This document shows, one piece after another, positions 12,670 to 49,431 of a stretch of DNA of 64,000 nucleotides. The DNA comes from an uncultured Candidatus Bathyarchaeia archaeon (GTDB lineage Archaea; Thermoproteota; Bathyarchaeia; 40CM-2-53-6): assembly GCA_964601325.1 (NCBI GenBank), contig CAZRNA010000001.1:4042-68041 (forward strand). The letters run 5' to 3'. Under the pieces are notes generated by a model. That model was not told the origin of the DNA. It saw only the letters and a list, made by a program, of their open reading frames with translations, and ran no database searches. How positions within the stretch are numbered: the stretch's first letter is position 1; each line of letters opens with the position of its first letter. The position numbers and the translations under genes are program-made.

Positions 12670-13311
12670 GTGCTCTACGCGGTTCCCCACCGAAGGACCG
12701 ATAAAAGCCCGCTGTCAGACTACGTCTCGAAGAGTAATCGACAGAGCGGCTTCATGTTGGCAAGCAGGTTCAGAACAGCCGTGCACGCATCGGCCCTATT
12801 GATCCCGTTCATCGCGGAGGTCACATCAAAATCCACAGTCGCCGTGGCTCTTGTAGCTACGACCGCTGCTTACATTCTGTCGGAGGTACTACGTCTCAGA
12901 TCCAAGAACGTCCCATTGATCACGCGATTCACACTGGCAATGAGTCGTGAGGACGAAAGTCCCCGTTTGGTCGTTGCACCGATCTACCTAGCAGTTGGTG
13001 TGGTTCTCTCTCTGCTCGCTTTTCCGAAGAACATCGCATACGCTTCAATCACCATCGTCGCGGTGGGCGACCCGGTGGCATCGTACCTTGGCAGAAAGCT
13101 CGGTCGAATACATGTGAGGCAGAAGACGTTGGAGGGTTTCGCTGGCGGCTTGATTGTTTCATTTGCGGCCGCGTTGCTCTGGGTTCCTCCTCATCTTGCG
13201 CTGGTAGGCTCAATTGGTGGGATGTTATTCGAGCTTCTCGGACTCCTTGATGATAACCTTACGATTCCAGTTGGTGCGGGGTCAGCAATGCTGATCACGA
13301 GCATTCTGTAG
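12670..13311 (+). CDS. CTP-dependent polyprenol/phosphatidate transferase-kinase family membrane protein (CDS / dolichol kinase / DUF92-like)
   Basis: 213 aa with about 6 TM helices. 'VGDPVASYLGRKLGRIHVRQKTLEGFAGG' resembles the C-terminal signature of the cytidylyltransferase / dolichol kinase family. Confidence 0.4.
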   Translation: MLYAVPHRRTDKSPLSDYVSKSNRQSGFMLASRFRTAVHASALLIPFIAEVTSKSTVAVALVATTAAYILSEVLRLRSKNVPLITRFTLAMSREDESPRLVVAPIYLAVGVVLSLLAFPKNIAYASITIVAVGDPVASYLGRKLGRIHVRQKTLEGFAGGLIVSFAAALLWVPPHLALVGSIGGMLFELLGLLDDNLTIPVGAGSAMLITSIL

Positions 13312-13397: not shown

Positions 13398-14132
13398 TCA
13401 GACTCCTAGGTGCAGTCGGTCGGCTAGTAGTTTTGGAAGTCCGGCTGCAACTATCTTGCTCGCAGCCGCGTCGATGTCGTAGGCGACTCTGTGTATCTGG
13501 AATTCGGGTTCTGCAAATGGTTCAAGAATCGCATAACTTGCCCGCGCGTTCCCGTCTCTGGGTTGACCGACACCGCCAGGATTCCCAAGCAACATTGAGT
13601 CAAACTTACGAAAGAAGGGGACGTGCGTGTGTCCGAGCAGGAGCATAGTCCCTCCGGAGCCTTCGACCAGACTCCTGAGAATGAACTCCGCAGTATCCGG
13701 GTAGACATACTCGTTGAGAGGATCCCTTGGACTTCCGTGCGCTAGGGCAATCTTGATGCCGTCCACAACGTAAGTTGTCTTCGTGCGCAGGCTCGCGATA
13801 TACCGTAGGTTTTCAGGTGAAATCTTCTTGCGTGTCCATTCGACAGCTTGCACTGCATACTGCACAAACCCTGACGTGTCGCCAGTCGAGACTGCATAGT
13901 CATGGTTTCCCATTACGATGGCCATTGGTCTCAACGATCTGATCTCGGATACGACTTCGTTTGGCTGGGCACCGTACCCGACAAGATCGCCGAGGCACAC
14001 CAAGGCTTCATAGTCACCTATTGCTGACAGAACCGCTTGCAAGGCATCGTAGTTAGAGTGGATATCTGAGATCACTGCGATCCGCGTTGTCTGTTCCGTG
14101 TTCGCGAAGAACTTGGGCGTCTCCTGATCCAT
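13398..14132 (-). CDS. Metallophosphoesterase (YfcE/MJ0936-like)
   Basis: 'IAVISDIHSN' (DxH), 'CLGDLVGYG' (GD), 'MGNHD' and 'GHTHVP' are present. The start is probably the second Met, which abuts the AAA gene stop. Confidence 0.6.
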   Translation of the reverse strand: MDQETPKFFANTEQTTRIAVISDIHSNYDALQAVLSAIGDYEALVCLGDLVGYGAQPNEVVSEIRSLRPMAIVMGNHDYAVSTGDTSGFVQYAVQAVEWTRKKISPENLRYIASLRTKTTYVVDGIKIALAHGSPRDPLNEYVYPDTAEFILRSLVEGSGGTMLLLGHTHVPFFRKFDSMLLGNPGGVGQPRDGNARASYAILEPFAEPEFQIHRVAYDIDAAASKIVAAGLPKLLADRLHLGV

Positions 14133-16735
14133 TAGGCTCTTTCGCCGTATGTTTCTAGGAATCCCCGACATTCTTCAATAGATTCCTTGGTTATCGAAGG
14201 CTTGATTCCCTTGACGGCGTTCTGAAGGTCTCGCGTTGTGATCTTCTCGTGTTCTATCCCCTTTACCGTATCGCGTACTGCTGTCATCTTGGCTTCTCTG
14301 ACGATCGCTGCTATGTCTGCGCCGCTGTAGCCCTCCGTTGACCTTACTAAGACGTCATAGTCGAGGTCGGCCATTGGAGATTCACGCAGTTCAATCTGGA
14401 ATATTGCCCTTCTTGCCTCATGGTCGGGCGGGGGAACGTACACTATCTTGTCAAATCGCCCAGGTCGCAGCAAAGCTGCATCGACCCAATGCGGTTTGTT
14501 TGTTGCTGAGAGCACCATCACATTTCGCAGATCTTTGATCCCGTCCATCTCAATCAGCAGTTGTGAGATAGGCTTGACTGCTTGTGTACCTGCTTCCCGT
14601 GAAGAGGCAAGACTCTCTATCTCGTCTATGAAAACTATCGCGGGAGTGTTTTCTCGAGCTCTATAGAAGAGCTCTTTTATCGCTGCGGCTATTTCTCCCG
14701 CCGACTTGTGAGAAAGTTCCCCTCCACTTGTAGTCAGAAAAGTGGCCTCTAATGAACCCGCGGCTGCTTTCGCAATCAGCGTTTTCCCACATCCTGGGGG
14801 TCCGAAGAGAAGCAGGCCCTTCGTGGACTGAAGACCATATTTCTTCATGAGTTCAGGGCGTTTGAGTGGCAGCTCTATCGTCTCCATGATAATCCGCTTG
14901 ACGTTGTCCAATCCTGCGATGTCTGCGAAGGTCACTCGAGGCTTCAGTTCCTCTTCTTTTCTTGACGTTCTTCTTTCGAAGTCTAGCCTCAACTTCTCGT
15001 AGTCTTCGAGCATTTGGATCGTGATGCTGGGCTTGTAGGTGCGAATGGTCTGTGCGAGTTCACTCATTCCGATCGGTACGACTTCTCCTCCTTTCATTGC
15101 TCTCTTGGCGACGTCAACTGCAGTCATCTGCACAGCATTTCGAATGTCGGCACCAGAGAATCTCTCGGATAGGGCAGCCAACTTGTCGTAGTCCACATCT
15201 GCCGCCATCGGTTTGTCTTTGCAGTGTACTTGGAAGATCGCTTTCCTAGCTTCTTTGTCTGGCGGCGCAATGTAGATCACTCTATCGAAACGTCCGGGCC
15301 TTAGAATGGCCTCGTCTAGAAGTTCTGGCTTGTTTGTGGCGCCCACGACCAAGAGCATTGCCTTCTCCTTCTCCAAGCCGTCCATTTCAGAGAGCATCAA
15401 GCTCAGCAGGCGGGGCGTAATATCGTCTGAACCATACAGGTCTCTCTTCTTGGCTATTGAATCGATCTCGTCAAAGAATAGGACCGATGGCGCGGTGGAT
15501 CGCGCGAGTTTGAATACCTCCGTGACTCGCTTCTCGCTTTCCCCGTACCACTTCGAGACGATGTCAGAAGTCTTCACATAATAGAAATTCGACTTCAGAG
15601 TCTGTGCGAGGGCTTTCATCAGAAGGGTCTTTCCACAACCTGGAGGGCCAAAGAGGAGAATTCCTCTAGGGGGTTCCGCTCCGTACGTTCTTGCAACATC
15701 AGATTTCTGTAGTGGCATCAGCACGGAGTCGTGGATCTCCTGCTTGAGCTGGCTGTAGCCTCCTATCTGGTCCCAGGCCAATTCCGGCTTGGCCTCTCTC
15801 TTCTCGAGTACGGGTTGAGCCACGGTCGTTGTTTGCGCCGCCCTAGCCTTCTGAAGAGCTGTCATCCTCGAGAGGTCCGTTCTTGCGAGTTGAAGAGAGA
15901 AAGTCACGAAGAGACCAAACGCTAATCCAAACATCATCTCGAACCCAAAATTCGATACAAAGATTGAAGATCCATAGGTGTAGGCAGCGGCCAATGGCAA
16001 GAAGCCTAACGCAGTCGCCACCGTCCACGGGTAAGCTCGTGTCCACTTCTTGGCGACCATCCCTGTAACGTATCCCGCTAGGCCCCAGCAGGCCGTCTCG
16101 ATGTAGAACGTCACATCGTCTATGAGATTCCTGAGCAACGTGGCTTGAAGTTGCCCGTATGCCGCCGGACTAGGACTTCGTGAATCATAGATGAATGATA
16201 GAGGAAGCCATGGATCCGGCAGTGGCTGAGGTGGCTGAACAGTAGGGACGTAGGGCACCACCAACAGTGCAAAGTTCGTTGTTCCCTTCATCCAGCCTAG
16301 CAAGAAGAGAGAAACCGCTAGACTCACTCCAGCCAATGCTCCATCCTTCGATCCAATGACCAAGCCACAAACAATCAGGGGCACGAACGCGATGATTGAG
16401 AGCGGGGAAAGAGCCAACGCCCATGCCAAGACCACCAGAGAGAGCGAGGGCCAAGTTCTATTCAACGCAAGCACGAGAAGGCATAGGGAGGCATAGACTA
16501 GTCCGAAGAACGTATTCTGGTAGTAGGCCGGGAGGATCGACAAAAACAGTCCCGTCGCAAGCGCGGCCATTGGATACTTCAAAGAAAGGATGAAAATGCC
16601 GATAACGAGAATGGCGACGATGAATAACGGGAAATACGGGAAAAGAAGCAAGACATAGAGGGACAGACAGACTGCAACCAGGCCACGAAAACTCCTGATC
16701 AGAATCGGAGAGCCAAGGAGGTCCATTCTCGTCAA
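14132..16735 (-). CDS. Membrane-anchored Cdc48/VCP-like tandem AAA+ ATPase. The first about 290 aa form a polytopic membrane domain, followed by D1 and D2 AAA modules
   Basis: Two 'GPPGCGKT' Walker A motifs are each followed by 'DEID/DEIE' Walker B and second-region-of-homology Arg ('RPGRFD'). The N-terminal 290 aa are almost entirely hydrophobic helices. Confidence 0.8.
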   Translation of the reverse strand: MTRMDLLGSPILIRSFRGLVAVCLSLYVLLLFPYFPLFIVAILVIGIFILSLKYPMAALATGLFLSILPAYYQNTFFGLVYASLCLLVLALNRTWPSLSLVVLAWALALSPLSIIAFVPLIVCGLVIGSKDGALAGVSLAVSLFLLGWMKGTTNFALLVVPYVPTVQPPQPLPDPWLPLSFIYDSRSPSPAAYGQLQATLLRNLIDDVTFYIETACWGLAGYVTGMVAKKWTRAYPWTVATALGFLPLAAAYTYGSSIFVSNFGFEMMFGLAFGLFVTFSLQLARTDLSRMTALQKARAAQTTTVAQPVLEKREAKPELAWDQIGGYSQLKQEIHDSVLMPLQKSDVARTYGAEPPRGILLFGPPGCGKTLLMKALAQTLKSNFYYVKTSDIVSKWYGESEKRVTEVFKLARSTAPSVLFFDEIDSIAKKRDLYGSDDITPRLLSLMLSEMDGLEKEKAMLLVVGATNKPELLDEAILRPGRFDRVIYIAPPDKEARKAIFQVHCKDKPMAADVDYDKLAALSERFSGADIRNAVQMTAVDVAKRAMKGGEVVPIGMSELAQTIRTYKPSITIQMLEDYEKLRLDFERRTSRKEEELKPRVTFADIAGLDNVKRIIMETIELPLKRPELMKKYGLQSTKGLLLFGPPGCGKTLIAKAAAGSLEATFLTTSGGELSHKSAGEIAAAIKELFYRARENTPAIVFIDEIESLASSREAGTQAVKPISQLLIEMDGIKDLRNVMVLSATNKPHWVDAALLRPGRFDKIVYVPPPDHEARRAIFQIELRESPMADLDYDVLVRSTEGYSGADIAAIVREAKMTAVRDTVKGIEHEKITTRDLQNAVKGIKPSITKESIEECRGFLETYGERA

Positions 16736-16984: not shown

Positions 16985-18319
16985 ATGAAGAGGACTCAGG
17001 TCAAAGTACTCGCTCTCTTCGTCATCCTCTGTTCCCTCACTCTGTTAGGTCAGATGCCACGCGAAACACTTGCTCAAACAGGAGAGATTGAGGTTGATAA
17101 CCTTCGAGGTGTGCAGTACCAAACCTCCGAGGACGTGTTCTCCAATGCAGCGGTGAACGGCACATTCTATTGGTGGGTTCCGGTGAAGAACCAGGAGAGC
17201 GGCACCCTGAACGGCGCCACTGTCGAAGTCGTGACCCGATTACCTTCTACATGGTTTGAATATTTCGGGCCAGATCCCAACTCAACTCTTCAGAAGGGAG
17301 ACGATTATCTCTACACATGGAAGATGGGGTCGATAGCTCCTCGTGGCGAGCAGGGGATTTCGCTTGGAAGCAAGTCCGTAGAGAAATTCGCACCCGGATT
17401 CGACTCTCGAAGAGTTTTGATTCCTGGCATAATCGAGTCCCAGATTTCGAACCAGACAGTTGTTGTGTCGGTCACACCGCGTGAGAGTCTGCAGCGAATC
17501 GAGGCTGAAGTATATCTTGAGCAAGGCACTGGTGTTTCGGCGGCTTTCATTCTCTCCACCGCGCTCCCCAAAGTTGACTGGACTTGGGATGATGGAAGAG
17601 GGTTAGGTTGGGGGCTCGATAATCCCAAACCTAATCATGAATACACGTTCAGAGTCATGCTTCAGCTGAAGAACCCAACCTACCCGAACAAGATGTTCTA
17701 CAAGCCCAGGGTTACGGTACGTTCGATAGAAGGGAGAGAGCAGACGAGATCTAGAGGCTCATCTCTCGTGGCCAAGGATGAGGTTCTAGGTACAATCACG
17801 TACTCTCTGCCTGGTAATCATGAATGGTTCTACTACCATGATCACAGGAAGGAGGTTGTGCATCGGTACTCATTAGGGGTGCCGTTCGTTGCGTTGATGA
17901 TTGATAGTCCGACAGCTTTGTCGGTGGTGAAAGGGGTTATGAACATCTCAGCCTCAGCTGTCTCTTCGAGTGGAACGGTACTGGCCATGCAGTGTCGAAT
18001 TGATGGAGGAGAATGGATGCCCTTGAACCCCGGTAACGAGACTCAGAAGGAGTATGGATATGGGGCTCTGGGTGCAAAGTCAGCCTATGTCGGCTCGATC
18101 GACTGGGATACCACTCCCTTGCCGGACGGCCCCCATGAAATCACTATTAGAGCAGAAGACTCAAACGGCATAGCCGACAACAAGACCATCACCGTCATAG
18201 TCGACAACTCTGGGCCAAGGTTCGTCGGGTACTCGCAGATCATCAACTTCGTCTATGTCGTCGCAATAGTCATCGGAATTGTCGGGTTAGTATGGATAGT
18301 GGACAGAAAACGTCGATAG
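16985..18319 (+). CDS. Secreted/cell-surface protein with N-terminal signal peptide and C-terminal TM anchor ending in RKRR
   Basis: 'MKRTQVKVLALFVILCSLTLLGQ' is a signal peptide. The C-terminal 'VYVVAIVIGIVGLVWIVDRKRR' is a TM anchor. It is divergent from the AAA gene. Confidence 0.45.
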   Translation: MKRTQVKVLALFVILCSLTLLGQMPRETLAQTGEIEVDNLRGVQYQTSEDVFSNAAVNGTFYWWVPVKNQESGTLNGATVEVVTRLPSTWFEYFGPDPNSTLQKGDDYLYTWKMGSIAPRGEQGISLGSKSVEKFAPGFDSRRVLIPGIIESQISNQTVVVSVTPRESLQRIEAEVYLEQGTGVSAAFILSTALPKVDWTWDDGRGLGWGLDNPKPNHEYTFRVMLQLKNPTYPNKMFYKPRVTVRSIEGREQTRSRGSSLVAKDEVLGTITYSLPGNHEWFYYHDHRKEVVHRYSLGVPFVALMIDSPTALSVVKGVMNISASAVSSSGTVLAMQCRIDGGEWMPLNPGNETQKEYGYGALGAKSAYVGSIDWDTTPLPDGPHEITIRAEDSNGIADNKTITVIVDNSGPRFVGYSQIINFVYVVAIVIGIVGLVWIVDRKRR

Positions 18320-18462: not shown

Positions 18463-18849
18463 GTGAGACACACATCCCATGGGAGAAGGTGGAGTGTCAT
18501 GCGTGCGTTGGAATCCATAGACGAGAAATTCGAGCGCAGTGGAGTCACGTTTCATGCCAGCTTGGTCAAGCTTGAGAATGCTGTCCTCATTCTCTTCTAC
18601 GAAGGATCTAGTAAGCTTGGGACGGTGGCCTTGGCTATGCCAGGGATCTTAGAGGAGAAAGTGGGACGATCATCAGTCCTCTTGGGTGGCAAGTACCTAA
18701 TGGTGAGCAGAGCGCTCGCCGAAAGGGCAGCTGGATCTTTCGGCAAACTAGCACTCGTTTCAGTGAACACATCCATTGAGGAGCCTGAAGCGCTCAGAAT
18801 CTACGCGAAACTGCTAGACGACTTGAAGCAGCCCCAGACGGCCGGCTAG
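18463..18849 (+). CDS. Hypothetical small soluble protein
   Basis: 128 aa with no motif recognised. It is convergent with the HD phosphohydrolase. Confidence 0.3.
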   Translation: MRHTSHGRRWSVMRALESIDEKFERSGVTFHASLVKLENAVLILFYEGSSKLGTVALAMPGILEEKVGRSSVLLGGKYLMVSRALAERAAGSFGKLALVSVNTSIEEPEALRIYAKLLDDLKQPQTAG

Positions 18850-47280: not shown

Positions 47281-49431
47281 TTGAGCAAAGTAGTTCTTGC
47301 CGGTTGTACGCTGCTTGCACTTCTCATTCTGCCAATTGTTCCGATCACAATAGCTCCCTCGCTCACACTTGGGATGGAGCCAGTAAGGAACCCTGCCGCT
47401 ATGGGGCATGGTGTGGATAGATCCTCGCCTCAAAGCTCAGTGAACATTGGGAAACTGGGTGGTGACTTCAGACTCATTGTGATCCTGGTGGAATTCGCCG
47501 ATATCAAGCACAAGACATCTGCTGATCAAATTCAGAAGTTAAGCGTGGAACGGATGAACAAGTACTGGCTTGAAGTCTCATACGGCCAATTCAATGTCAT
47601 CAGCGACACTGTCGGATGGTTCGAACTAAGTCATGATGAAGCATACTACGGTAGGGACATGAGCCCCAAAGACCCTGGAAGCGATCAAAATGATCTCGAT
47701 GTAGTCGCCGACGCGTGCAAGTTAGTAGGGAACATAGACTTCAACCAGTATCAGTCTATAATGGTGATTTTCGCGGGGCACGGTCAGGATTCAGATGCCA
47801 AGAACACCGACCTGCTCTGGCCGAGCGCATGGTGGGATGGACTTGAGGCGAAATGTGGAAGCAAGACCTTCGCTAACGGAGGATTCGCTCCTGAGGTTAC
47901 GTCGTACGATACGGTCGATTTCGGGGGTGTCACGCACGAATTCGGCCACACAATCAACTTGCCTGATCTCTACGACGCCGGCCCCAACGCTCCCGACTAT
48001 TGGAAGACACGCGTAGACTTTGTGGGCATGTGGTCTCTGATGGCATCTGGCAGCTGGGGTGGGCCTGACGAGGACGGGACAGATCCTACAGGACTTGAAT
48101 CGTGGAGCAGGATCAAGCTTGGCTGGCTCTCAACCGTATCCATCCCCTTGGCCCCGGGCGGGTTCGTCCAGCAACTCAATCAATTAGGCGATACGACTGG
48201 CCCAAGGGCATTGAAGCTACTAGCAGCAAGCGGCAGATACTATCTGTTCGAGGCCAGGGCCAAGGTCGGAGTGGACAAGTACCTACCCGACTCGGGAGTC
48301 CTCATCACGCTCATAGACGAGTCGAGGGATTCGGGACAGGGCATCGTCAAAGTTGTGGACTGCCACCCTGGGACAAGATCCATTGACGACGCGACCTGCG
48401 GAGTGAACGAGTCATGGTCAGACGCAGCAAACAACATCTACATGAAGGTCATTGGGCAACAGGGAACTAGCTACACTGTCGCGTTCGCAAGCAAACCAAT
48501 AACGACTCTGAAGGTATACACAGCCGAGTTTTCATTGACGGGTGTTCCATCTTCAGCTTCTGCAAACGTCACGGTTGACGGCGCAGAATACGCAGAGATT
48601 ACAGGGAGCGAGAGGCTCGTGCTGGTCTTCCCGCTCGGCTCAACTCACACTGTCACGCTCTCCCAGTGTGCCACGGTTGGTGAGGACACGCGTTATTGCA
48701 CAACCGAAAACACGATCGCAGTCGCGACGCAGGGCACCTATTCAGTTCACTATGACACGAAACAGTATAGACTCCTCGTCGAGACACAGCCCTCATTCAT
48801 CGCATGGCCGATTGAGAAATGGTTCACAGCCGGCCAGACTGAGACGGTCGGACCATACGACGAAACTGTACCCGTGAGTGCCGGCATTCGCTACTTCCTT
48901 CCGGGATTGACAGTAGACGACACTCAACTCAAGGAAAGGACAGTGACTTTGCACATGGACCAACCACACATTGTCAAAGTCAGTTACGTTACCCAATACT
49001 TCCTCAAGATTACCTCGGCTTTCGGAAACCCGAAAGGCGAGGACTGGTATACGTCAGGCGACGTTGCCGAATATTCCGTGACTACTCCCTATGGCGTCCT
49101 GATACAGCACTTCTTCGTCTCATGGACGGGCGATGTGACTTCGGCCCAATCAAAGGGAACGCTGACAATGACAGGACCCTATGCAATTGAGGCCAAATGG
49201 CGGGACGACTACACTCAGCTTTGGGTCGCACTGGTTGTGTTGGCTGCGGTTGCGGCCGGATTCTTGGGCTTGAGACACCGCAAGGCAAAGAAGATCACGC
49301 CGACCACATCCGTTAGCGGTGCTCCCACCTCACAGGCAATACCAACAGAATCAGGCTGGTTCTGCATCAAGTGCGGAGCACCTCTTCCTCCAGATTCGAG
49401 CTTCTGCGAGATCTGTGGCTCTCGACAATAG
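47281..49431 (+). CDS. Secreted M6-like (immune inhibitor A-like) zinc metalloprotease domain protein with a C-terminal TM helix and a cytoplasmic Zn-ribbon tail
   Basis: TTG start after a GGGAGGT SD, then a signal peptide. 'VTHEFGHTINLPDLYD' matches the M6 'HEFGHxLGLPDxYD' motif. Near the C-terminus 'LWVALVVLAAVAAGFLGL' is a TM helix, followed by 'CIKCGAPLPPDSSFCEICG'. Confidence 0.6.
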   Translation: MSKVVLAGCTLLALLILPIVPITIAPSLTLGMEPVRNPAAMGHGVDRSSPQSSVNIGKLGGDFRLIVILVEFADIKHKTSADQIQKLSVERMNKYWLEVSYGQFNVISDTVGWFELSHDEAYYGRDMSPKDPGSDQNDLDVVADACKLVGNIDFNQYQSIMVIFAGHGQDSDAKNTDLLWPSAWWDGLEAKCGSKTFANGGFAPEVTSYDTVDFGGVTHEFGHTINLPDLYDAGPNAPDYWKTRVDFVGMWSLMASGSWGGPDEDGTDPTGLESWSRIKLGWLSTVSIPLAPGGFVQQLNQLGDTTGPRALKLLAASGRYYLFEARAKVGVDKYLPDSGVLITLIDESRDSGQGIVKVVDCHPGTRSIDDATCGVNESWSDAANNIYMKVIGQQGTSYTVAFASKPITTLKVYTAEFSLTGVPSSASANVTVDGAEYAEITGSERLVLVFPLGSTHTVTLSQCATVGEDTRYCTTENTIAVATQGTYSVHYDTKQYRLLVETQPSFIAWPIEKWFTAGQTETVGPYDETVPVSAGIRYFLPGLTVDDTQLKERTVTLHMDQPHIVKVSYVTQYFLKITSAFGNPKGEDWYTSGDVAEYSVTTPYGVLIQHFFVSWTGDVTSAQSKGTLTMTGPYAIEAKWRDDYTQLWVALVVLAAVAAGFLGLRHRKAKKITPTTSVSGAPTSQAIPTESGWFCIKCGAPLPPDSSFCEICGSRQ

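Follow-up and report, generated by a model that had tools for sequence, protein, structure and literature searches.

In the window analysed here, a stretch of 64,000 nucleotides from an uncultured Candidatus Bathyarchaeia archaeon (contig CAZRNA010000001.1 of assembly GCA_964601325.1, positions 4,042 to 68,041 of the forward strand), the gene at 14132..16735 on the minus strand encodes a predicted integral membrane protein in which a strongly hydrophobic N-terminal domain of about 285 residues precedes two AAA modules, D1 and D2. Judged by its sequence, the protein belongs to a distinct, mostly archaeal family and is not a modified Cdc48. We infer that it is a membrane-integrated, presumably hexameric unfoldase, whose D1 module would act on membrane or membrane-associated proteins that the transmembrane (TM) domain presents to it, extracting or unfolding them and releasing them to the cytoplasm. 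The initial annotation of this DNA had already proposed a membrane-level unfoldase or extractase, and we retain that proposal as the most economical functional reading, with a probability of about one half.

The gene is one continuous open reading frame (ORF) of 867 amino acids (aa) when read from TTG, with neither a stop nor a change of frame between the hydrophobic N-terminus and the AAA modules, and it ends in a stop codon at 14132-14134. The TTG start is a mechanical one, and an ATG sits at codon 4 (16726; start region 16724..16735, minus strand), giving 864 aa. The ATG is probably the true start, with the TTG unused, because a relative of 80 % identity (P0003) begins MDLFGSP at that methionine. 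Searching 5.8 billion proteins brought up relatives over the full length at identities of 94, 91, 80, 71, 67 and 53 %, and a further 100 or so, at 37-42 %, align with 96-100 % of the query; the orthologues from 94 down to 53 % match the window protein in length and architecture. A polytopic domain followed by two AAA modules was found in about 100 of the 120 top homologues, nearly all of which have 5-10 hydrophobic segments before the first Walker A motif and a spacing of about 282 residues between the two Walker A motifs. The membrane domain is thus kept by close and distant homologues alike, whereas the initial annotation had allowed that all close homologues might lack it. The same annotation had raised the possibility of an assembly or annotation artefact, in which a sequencing error joined a membrane-protein gene to a soluble AAA gene. 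Nothing was found in its favour, and the recurrence of the continuous fusion ORF in independent JGI, ENA, Logan and NCBI assemblies, as well as in the divergent homologues, makes the chance of such a mis-join negligible.

Both AAA modules are intact, as the initial annotation had stated, and every motif that it listed was located by Pfam and in a motif table that we built with canonical archaeal Cdc48 sequences as controls. Pfam recognises two PF00004 domains (2.1e-77), two AAA_lid_3 domains and a Vps4_C-like tail. Walker A (GPPGCGKT) begins at residues 363 and 645, the Walker B motifs read FFDEID in D1 and FIDEIE in D2, and RPGRFD, with its second-region arginines, occurs in each module. The distance from Walker A to Walker A, which had been described as Cdc48-like, is indeed similar to that of the canonical controls (282 against 272-274 residues). 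The membrane-proximal D1 module (14966..15775, minus strand, approximately residues 321-590) has its Walker A at residues 363-370 (15626-15649), sensor 1 as GATNKP and the arginine fingers in RPGRFD. Its pore loop 1, K-W-Y-G, at residues 395-398 (15542-15553, in the context SKWYGESE), is of the canonical aromatic kind, and W396 and G398 of this loop are invariant across 40 family members. The D2 module (14135..14965, minus strand, approximately residues 591-867) likewise keeps Walker A (residues 645-652, 14780-14803), Walker B, sensor 1 (SATNKP), the arginine fingers and an intact sensor 2 (GYSGADI). At the position of its pore loop 1, residues 677-680 (14696-14707), it reads K-S-A-G (context KSAGEIA) and the aromatic residue is missing; relatives read G-Y-E or show no recognisable loop, against KWVG in the Cdc48 controls.

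In the mechanism that we propose, the AAA subunits would assemble as a hexamer at the membrane, the membrane bundle would select or deliver substrates from within or at the membrane, and the membrane-proximal D1 ring would grip the polypeptide and thread it by means of KWYG. D2 may serve chiefly in ATP-dependent assembly or as a power ring, without gripping the polypeptide a second time; in NSF-type enzymes, by analogy, only one of the rings threads. The unfolded or extracted product would be freed into the cytoplasm for refolding or for separate proteases and would not be fed into a docked protease. By functional analogy, such a protein could be likened to an FtsH without its protease, or to a dislocase of the Msp1 or Derlin/Cdc48 kind. 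Inteins typically sit in functionally important ATPase sites, and in three family members (P0090, P0094 and P0117) intein and homing-endonuclease domains (PF14890, PF14528) lie between the Walker A motifs, the second of which falls near residue 1170. A fourth (P0123, 1912 aa, second Walker A at 1685) may be similarly interrupted, to judge from its length. These interrupted members are about 1390-1910 aa long, and we count the interruption of D2 by inteins in favour of the unfoldase reading. A more specific proposal, in which the protein is a self-contained dislocase whose 10-TM module hands substrates laterally out of the bilayer to the pore of D1, without a protease attached, and in which the Sulfolobus membrane-bound AAA proteins are a reduced derivative of this form, is put forward more tentatively; the module in question, previously undescribed, has the signature PFYP...YQ...W...P...W.

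The structure of the membrane domain was predicted with AlphaFold, which places 11 helices between residues 10 and 283, mostly at a predicted local distance difference test score (pLDDT) of 80-97. For the N-terminal domain (N-domain) modelled alone, with 21 family sequences, pLDDT was 81 and the predicted template modelling score (pTM) 0.78. Topology was assigned by applying the positive-inside rule to the family alignment (21 members) together with the helix boundaries of the model. The result is a self-consistent 10-TM domain with both termini predicted inside, in which the positive-inside rule is satisfied at every loop, and the at least eight helices that had been announced for a hydrophobic N-terminus of about 290 aa are accounted for. 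The basic N-terminus, the turns with K53, R92 and K130, the loop WTRAY (231-235) and the basic linker (284-315) are predicted to be cytoplasmic, and the FPYFP loop, the end of the helix at Y72-Q73 and the acidic, Pro-rich loop with P161 are predicted to lie outside.

The first TM cluster (16289..16708, minus strand, residues 10-149) has seven predicted helices and contains P-[FY]-[YF]-P (33-36), Y72-Q73, W95 and G128. It is followed by the predicted extracytoplasmic loop (16169..16288, minus strand, residues 150-189), with a near-invariant P161 and a low pLDDT of 48-60; in family means this loop is about 50 residues long and carries 3.95 Asp and Glu against 2.05 Lys and Arg. The second helical cluster (15887..16168, minus strand, residues 190-283) is predicted to consist of an amphipathic helix (190-206) and TM helices at 208-230, 236-259 and 265-283, the last of which exits to the cytoplasm. 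The basic cytoplasmic linker to D1 (15776..15886, minus strand, residues 284-320) begins as a helix and then becomes disordered (pLDDT 38-49 at 297-317), with a mean of 5.6 Lys and Arg. In this model the motor is held at the cytoplasmic face of the membrane by the 10-TM domain through a linker of about 35 residues. Near-invariant positions across the family N-domain alignment are P36, Y72, Q73, W95, P161 and W217, the latter in helix 208-230, and the signature residues sit on the predicted extracytoplasmic side, at helix ends and loops of the outer face.

In the model, the first helical cluster resembles the fold of the S-components of energy-coupling factor (ECF) transporters, a likeness at the level of fold with homology not proven. 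One might imagine an ECF-like uptake of small molecules, powered by AAA modules instead of ABC ATPases and with an S-component-like bundle as its membrane part, and we consider this very improbable. A Foldseek search against the PDB gave no significant match, and comparison with ThiT, PanT, FolT, BioY and RibU gave identities of 10-18 %, no S-component Pfam match and Foldseek E-values that are not significant. Moreover, S-components are 6-TM proteins with both termini inside, whereas the first cluster is predicted to have seven helices with its N-terminus inside and its C-terminus outside, and here the membrane domain is joined to a protein-threading motor. No EcfT or EcfA gene was found among the neighbours of the AAA gene or of the examined family loci, and solute transport is not known to be driven by classic AAA modules with pore loops, whose action is to thread polypeptides.

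The two modules resemble those of Cdc48, VAT and p97, and the initial annotation had taken the protein for a Cdc48/VAT whose N domain was replaced. The nearest solved structures by sequence are the substrate-threading unfoldases VAT, Cdc48 and p97 (e.g. PDB 5vc7, 5g4g; E 1e-122), these are also the top-scoring named models, and the tandem modules are similarly spaced. With Cdc48, VAT and p97 the protein shares tandem AAA modules of the classic clade, RPGRFD arginine fingers and AAA_lid_3, and a hand-over-hand threading is presumed to be the same, at least in D1. A true orthologue, with the double-psi barrel swapped for a membrane domain, might still perform the function of Cdc48, including feeding the 20S proteasome. 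However, the CDC48 model TIGR01243 scores 525.3 bits against a cutoff of 802.65, and the D1 of the query aligns to profile positions 447-731, which correspond to D2 of Cdc48; against solved structures, too, both modules match D2 of VAT/p97 best. In single-module neighbour-joining trees the D1 modules of the family make up one clade and its D2 modules another, both lying outside canonical Cdc48 D1 and D2; the method is crude, and we leave uninterpreted the deep branching order, which differs between the two trees. No match to CDC48_N (PF02359) or CDC48_2 (PF02933), nor to any other Pfam or NCBIfam model, was found in residues 1-300, and the canonical matches P0071 and P0076 do carry PF02359.

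The C-terminus points the same way. The protein ends in Y-G-E-R-A (14135-14149, minus strand), conserved in the family as Y-G-E-R-x, against LPYA and KMYA in the Cdc48 controls. In an HbYX motif the last residue but one is Tyr or Phe and the residue before it is small or hydrophobic (PMC3493965), and by this definition none is present; AAA proteins without HbYX neither bound nor activated archaeal 20S proteasomes (PMC3493965). Unlike Cdc48, VAT and p97, the protein thus has no double-psi barrel, no aromatic pore loop in D2 and no HbYX, and it is predicted to be integral to the membrane. From the TIGR01243 score, the module trees, the D2 pore loop and the C-terminus we reject canonical Cdc48 orthology, and a retained Cdc48 function is disfavoured as quite improbable. 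Canonical Cdc48, Lon and proteasome genes were not found among the window ORFs scanned with Pfam, and the ORF list shows no further long candidate.

Names of source organisms among the relatives include Micrarchaeota/Micrarchaeia, Anstonellales, Burarchaeum, Parvarchaeota, Thermoprotei and Thermoplasmata, and a full-length genome scan, a sample of 600 stretches and no census, adds Marsarchaeota and Thermoplasmatota among the matches listed. The polytopic family is mostly archaeal and occurs mainly in DPANN, Thermoproteota and Thermoplasmatota. An exhaustive profile search with the N-domain against 1.84 billion representatives gave only 149 clusters, most of which are N-domain plus two AAA modules, so that by sequence the membrane domain is a rare, reusable module. 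Among its other architectures is the N-domain with one AAA module. In a Thermoplasmatota variant, N-domain and AAA are preceded by about 350 aa of extracellular domain and, ahead of that, by a signal or TM segment (L004:4084-7749 and L075:4705-7896; the variant also includes P0145, P0147, P0157 and similar proteins). A protein of 977 aa on a 1.48-Mb contig labelled Verrucomicrobiae (L060:5629-8562) has an FHA-like domain, the membrane domain (motifs LPFYS and PIAYYTP) and two AAA modules that branch at the base of the D1 and D2 clades of the family. In divergent fusions the membrane domain is joined to an NYN/Zc3h12a RNase (P0230, L086:6001-7896), to TIR plus AAA (P0249, L085:1929-4148) and to Schlafen-AlbA2 plus HEAT (P0235). 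We regard these fusions as true homologues and not as compositional matches because the signature residues (PFYP/YQ/W/P/W) are kept. All AAA modules that are directly joined to the N-domain and bear the KWYG loop group with family D1.

This modularity is the basis of the main rival to the unfoldase reading, namely that the protein is a transmembrane sensor-effector. The bundle would sense a ligand, or the state of membrane or envelope, at the outer face and drive interchangeable cytoplasmic outputs, here a tandem AAA remodeller acting on soluble targets, in stress signalling or in conflict and defence. The range of attached modules, the position of the signature residues on the predicted extracytoplasmic side, the likening of the first bundle to ligand-binding S-components and a patchy-looking distribution in Bathyarchaeia all speak for such a role. 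Against it, the large majority of N-domain proteins bear an AAA motor with an intact threading loop. No context resembling a defence island surrounds the window gene, whose neighbours are housekeeping genes (fumarase, GNAT, ribosomal proteins S13 and S4, thymidylate kinase, polyprenyl synthetase and Hef), and the loci of the NYN and TIR fusions have likewise housekeeping surroundings. PADLOC returned only partial, generic matches of the AAA core to IetA and TRIP13 and no match for the neighbours of the AAA gene. From these generic matches and housekeeping contexts we reject assignment to a defence system. Two members lie on contigs of 0.9-1.0 Mb (P0081 and P0118, the latter from Micrarchaeia), which would fit a core rather than an accessory role. 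We consider the sensor-effector reading unlikely on balance, yet it is the alternative to be taken most seriously.

Several observations weigh against the unfoldase reading. That this membrane domain is fused also to effectors that are not unfoldases, the NYN RNase and TIR, fits a sensor module at least equally well. The outward-facing conserved residues offer no obvious site at which a cytoplasmic motor could pick up a substrate. The full-length AlphaFold model has a pLDDT of 79.8 and a pTM of only 0.43, a value that limits what can be said of the hexamer and of how the TM domain is placed relative to the pore of D1. Hit counts in Bathyarchaeia (about 3 clusters at at least 80 % identity for the AAA protein, more than 55 clusters at 82-91 % for Hef) weakly suggest that the gene is patchy among close relatives, contrary to what an essential housekeeping role in that lineage would lead one to expect. 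The Hef helicase-nuclease of the window is itself 86 % identical to a 'Candidatus Bathyarchaeota' protein, in line with an origin in Bathyarchaeia. Finally, an all-versus-all BLAST of ORFs from 13 family loci found no neighbour common to the family, and hence no pointer to a pathway.

The pairs of neighbours that do recur are local to a clade. As the initial annotation had described, a secreted surface protein anchored at its C-terminus is encoded divergently from the AAA gene (16985..18319, plus strand). It is 444 aa long, begins with a signal peptide, contains a Big_7 Ig-like domain and is anchored by a TM segment. Its homologues adjoin the AAA gene in relatives of 94 % (L081) and 53 % (L083) AAA identity, despite rearranged other flanks, and the pairing comprises three Bathyarchaeia-type loci, all in the clade of the window. 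The surface protein is a possible partner or substrate of the AAA protein. On this basis one could suppose that the AAA protein is a dedicated factor for the assembly, anchoring or turnover of secreted proteins with C-terminal anchors, for instance in an Msp1-like extraction of mis-inserted or surplus tail anchors. The persistence of the gene pair favours the idea, as does a Micrarchaeota locus (L078), where a neighbouring gene likewise encodes a protein that combines a signal peptide with a C-terminal anchor. However, no homologous or analogous neighbour recurs in the other 10 loci examined, and the divergent orientation is no evidence of co-expression; we judge such a dedicated role improbable. 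In three Micrarchaeota loci a different pair is seen, in which homologous soluble proteins of about 265 aa, unrelated to the surface protein, are encoded convergently and immediately downstream of the membrane-AAA gene (L007:7813-8658, L008:5287-6069 and L010:8563-9360, minus strand).

On the other side of the AAA gene lies a YfcE-like metallophosphoesterase gene (13398..14171, minus strand), which overlaps the AAA stop codon as first noticed, by 40 nucleotides (14132..14171) if its first ATG is used. The two genes are probably co-transcribed. In L082 the metallophosphoesterase is called from an internal methionine and shares a single base (3777) with the AAA stop codon, an arrangement suggestive of translational coupling. 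The gene is kept in L081 and L082 and absent in L083, and the metallophosphoesterase is probably not part of the AAA system because it is conserved in the closest relatives only. Between the fumarase and metallophosphoesterase genes, a 213-aa polytopic membrane protein without a Pfam match is encoded at 12670..13311 (plus strand). Past the surface-protein gene, a 128-aa ORF (18463..18849, plus strand) has a weak, sub-threshold Pfam match, with 20 bits where 31 are needed (E 6e-4), to the proteasome assembly chaperone 4 family, PAC4, which is of note next to the gene of a putative AAA unfoldase. Unrelated to the AAA gene, and unusual in an archaeon, is a protein of 716 aa encoded at 47281..49431 (plus strand), whose catalytic domain is that of an M6 (immune inhibitor A-like) metallopeptidase. 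An Rfam scan of the window gave no matches.

The removal of misfolded or surplus membrane proteins in archaea is poorly understood beyond the membrane-bound LonB, and to our knowledge archaea mostly lack FtsH. A threading motor covalently joined to a folded 10-TM domain is a testable candidate for this task, in a family that spans the small genomes of Micrarchaeota and other DPANN as well as Bathyarchaeia, Thermoprotei, Marsarchaeota and Thermoplasmatota. If the dislocase reading were true, the family would follow the logic of Derlin/Cdc48 or FtsH in an archaeal version and would fill a gap in archaeal membrane-protein quality control. Our analysis also delimits a membrane domain that is new and that recurs in combination with TIR, NYN-RNase, FHA and extracellular modules, and gives the Sulfolobus membrane-bound AAA protein, an orphan in function from a genetically tractable genus, an evolutionary context and a likely ancestor-like form. 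The family is, besides, a hazard for annotation: its members are labelled VCP-like, CDC48 subfamily, FtsH or microtubule-severing ATPase (the last three being existing annotations of Sulfolobales relatives) and would pass the cutoff for PAN. The window protein (14135-16735) reaches 503 bits with the PAN model NF003069, whose cutoff is 500, and leaves the coiled-coil/OB positions 1-115 of the profile unmatched; the cutoff is exceeded only because the scores of two AAA modules add up.

The initial annotation had supposed that nothing of the kind was characterised in archaea, which holds for one part of the finding and not for the other. Membrane-anchored tandem AAA proteins are already known from archaea: Forouzan et al. 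(PMC3493965) treat 'membrane-bound AAA (MBA)' as a separate archaeal AAA group and cite for it the work of Serek-Heuberger et al. 2009 (Biochem Soc Trans 37:118) on Sulfolobus. Pfam and NCBIfam contain no model covering the membrane domain, and no description of the fold, signature and modular reuse of the 10-TM domain, or of the size and spread of the polytopic family, was found in the searchable literature.

The closest comparison is with this MBA type. A Sulfolobaceae protein of 604 aa (L003) has one N-terminal TM helix and two AAA modules, is 46 % identical to residues 259-863 of the window protein and nests inside the D1 and D2 clades of the family in the neighbour-joining trees; the single-TM form is kept across Sulfolobales (S. 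acidocaldarius, Sulfurisphaera tokodaii, Saccharolobus islandicus and S. shibatae), with 79 % identity to L003 in the protein of S. acidocaldarius. By its architecture and Sulfolobales-wide distribution, and not by published accessions, we take L003 to be of the MBA type. MBA1 and MBA2, the proteins of the 2009 report, are said to have a single TM helix within an N-terminal extension of about 50 residues. The window protein resembles the MBA type in its tandem classic AAA modules, its N-terminal membrane anchoring and its lack of a folded soluble N domain, and L003 shares the non-canonical pore-loop segment of D2. Unlike the MBA type, with its one TM helix and short extension, the window protein is predicted to have a folded, conserved 10-TM domain with a signature of its own, and it ends in YGERA where the MBA type lacks the conserved YGER motif. 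It is best described, on these sequence comparisons, as a polytopic relative of the MBA lineage and not as a strict MBA.

With FtsH the protein would share an N-terminally membrane-anchored classic AAA ring placed directly under the membrane, an arrangement that fits membrane-protein quality control. FtsH has 2 TM helices and a single AAA module and carries an M41 Zn-protease at its C-terminus, whereas the present protein has 10 predicted TM helices, two AAA modules and no protease domain. The FtsH model TIGR01241 scores 438 against a cutoff of 600. The AAA protein has no Pfam match to Peptidase_M41 (PF01434), in agreement with the initial annotation that it is not an FtsH, and a scan of family members bearing the N-domain, a set that did not include the window's own sequence, revealed no HExxH. 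The homologue search also returned FtsH-like proteins of unusual architecture (P0013, P0021, P0045, P0048, P0088 and P0111; about 1100-1440 aa, one of them named Acidimicrobiales), with three or four consecutive AAA modules and Peptidase_M41, and with 1-2 hydrophobic segments ahead of the first Walker A (one in P0045).

The remaining likeness, to Msp1/ATAD1 and to the Derlin-Cdc48 machinery of endoplasmic-reticulum-associated degradation, is a functional analogy for which we claim no homology. Msp1 differs from the protein described here by its one TM helix and its one AAA module. What these systems would have in common with it is an AAA motor that extracts membrane proteins into the cytosol without an attached protease, and in endoplasmic-reticulum-associated degradation a six-TM rhomboid-like protein works with a tandem AAA.

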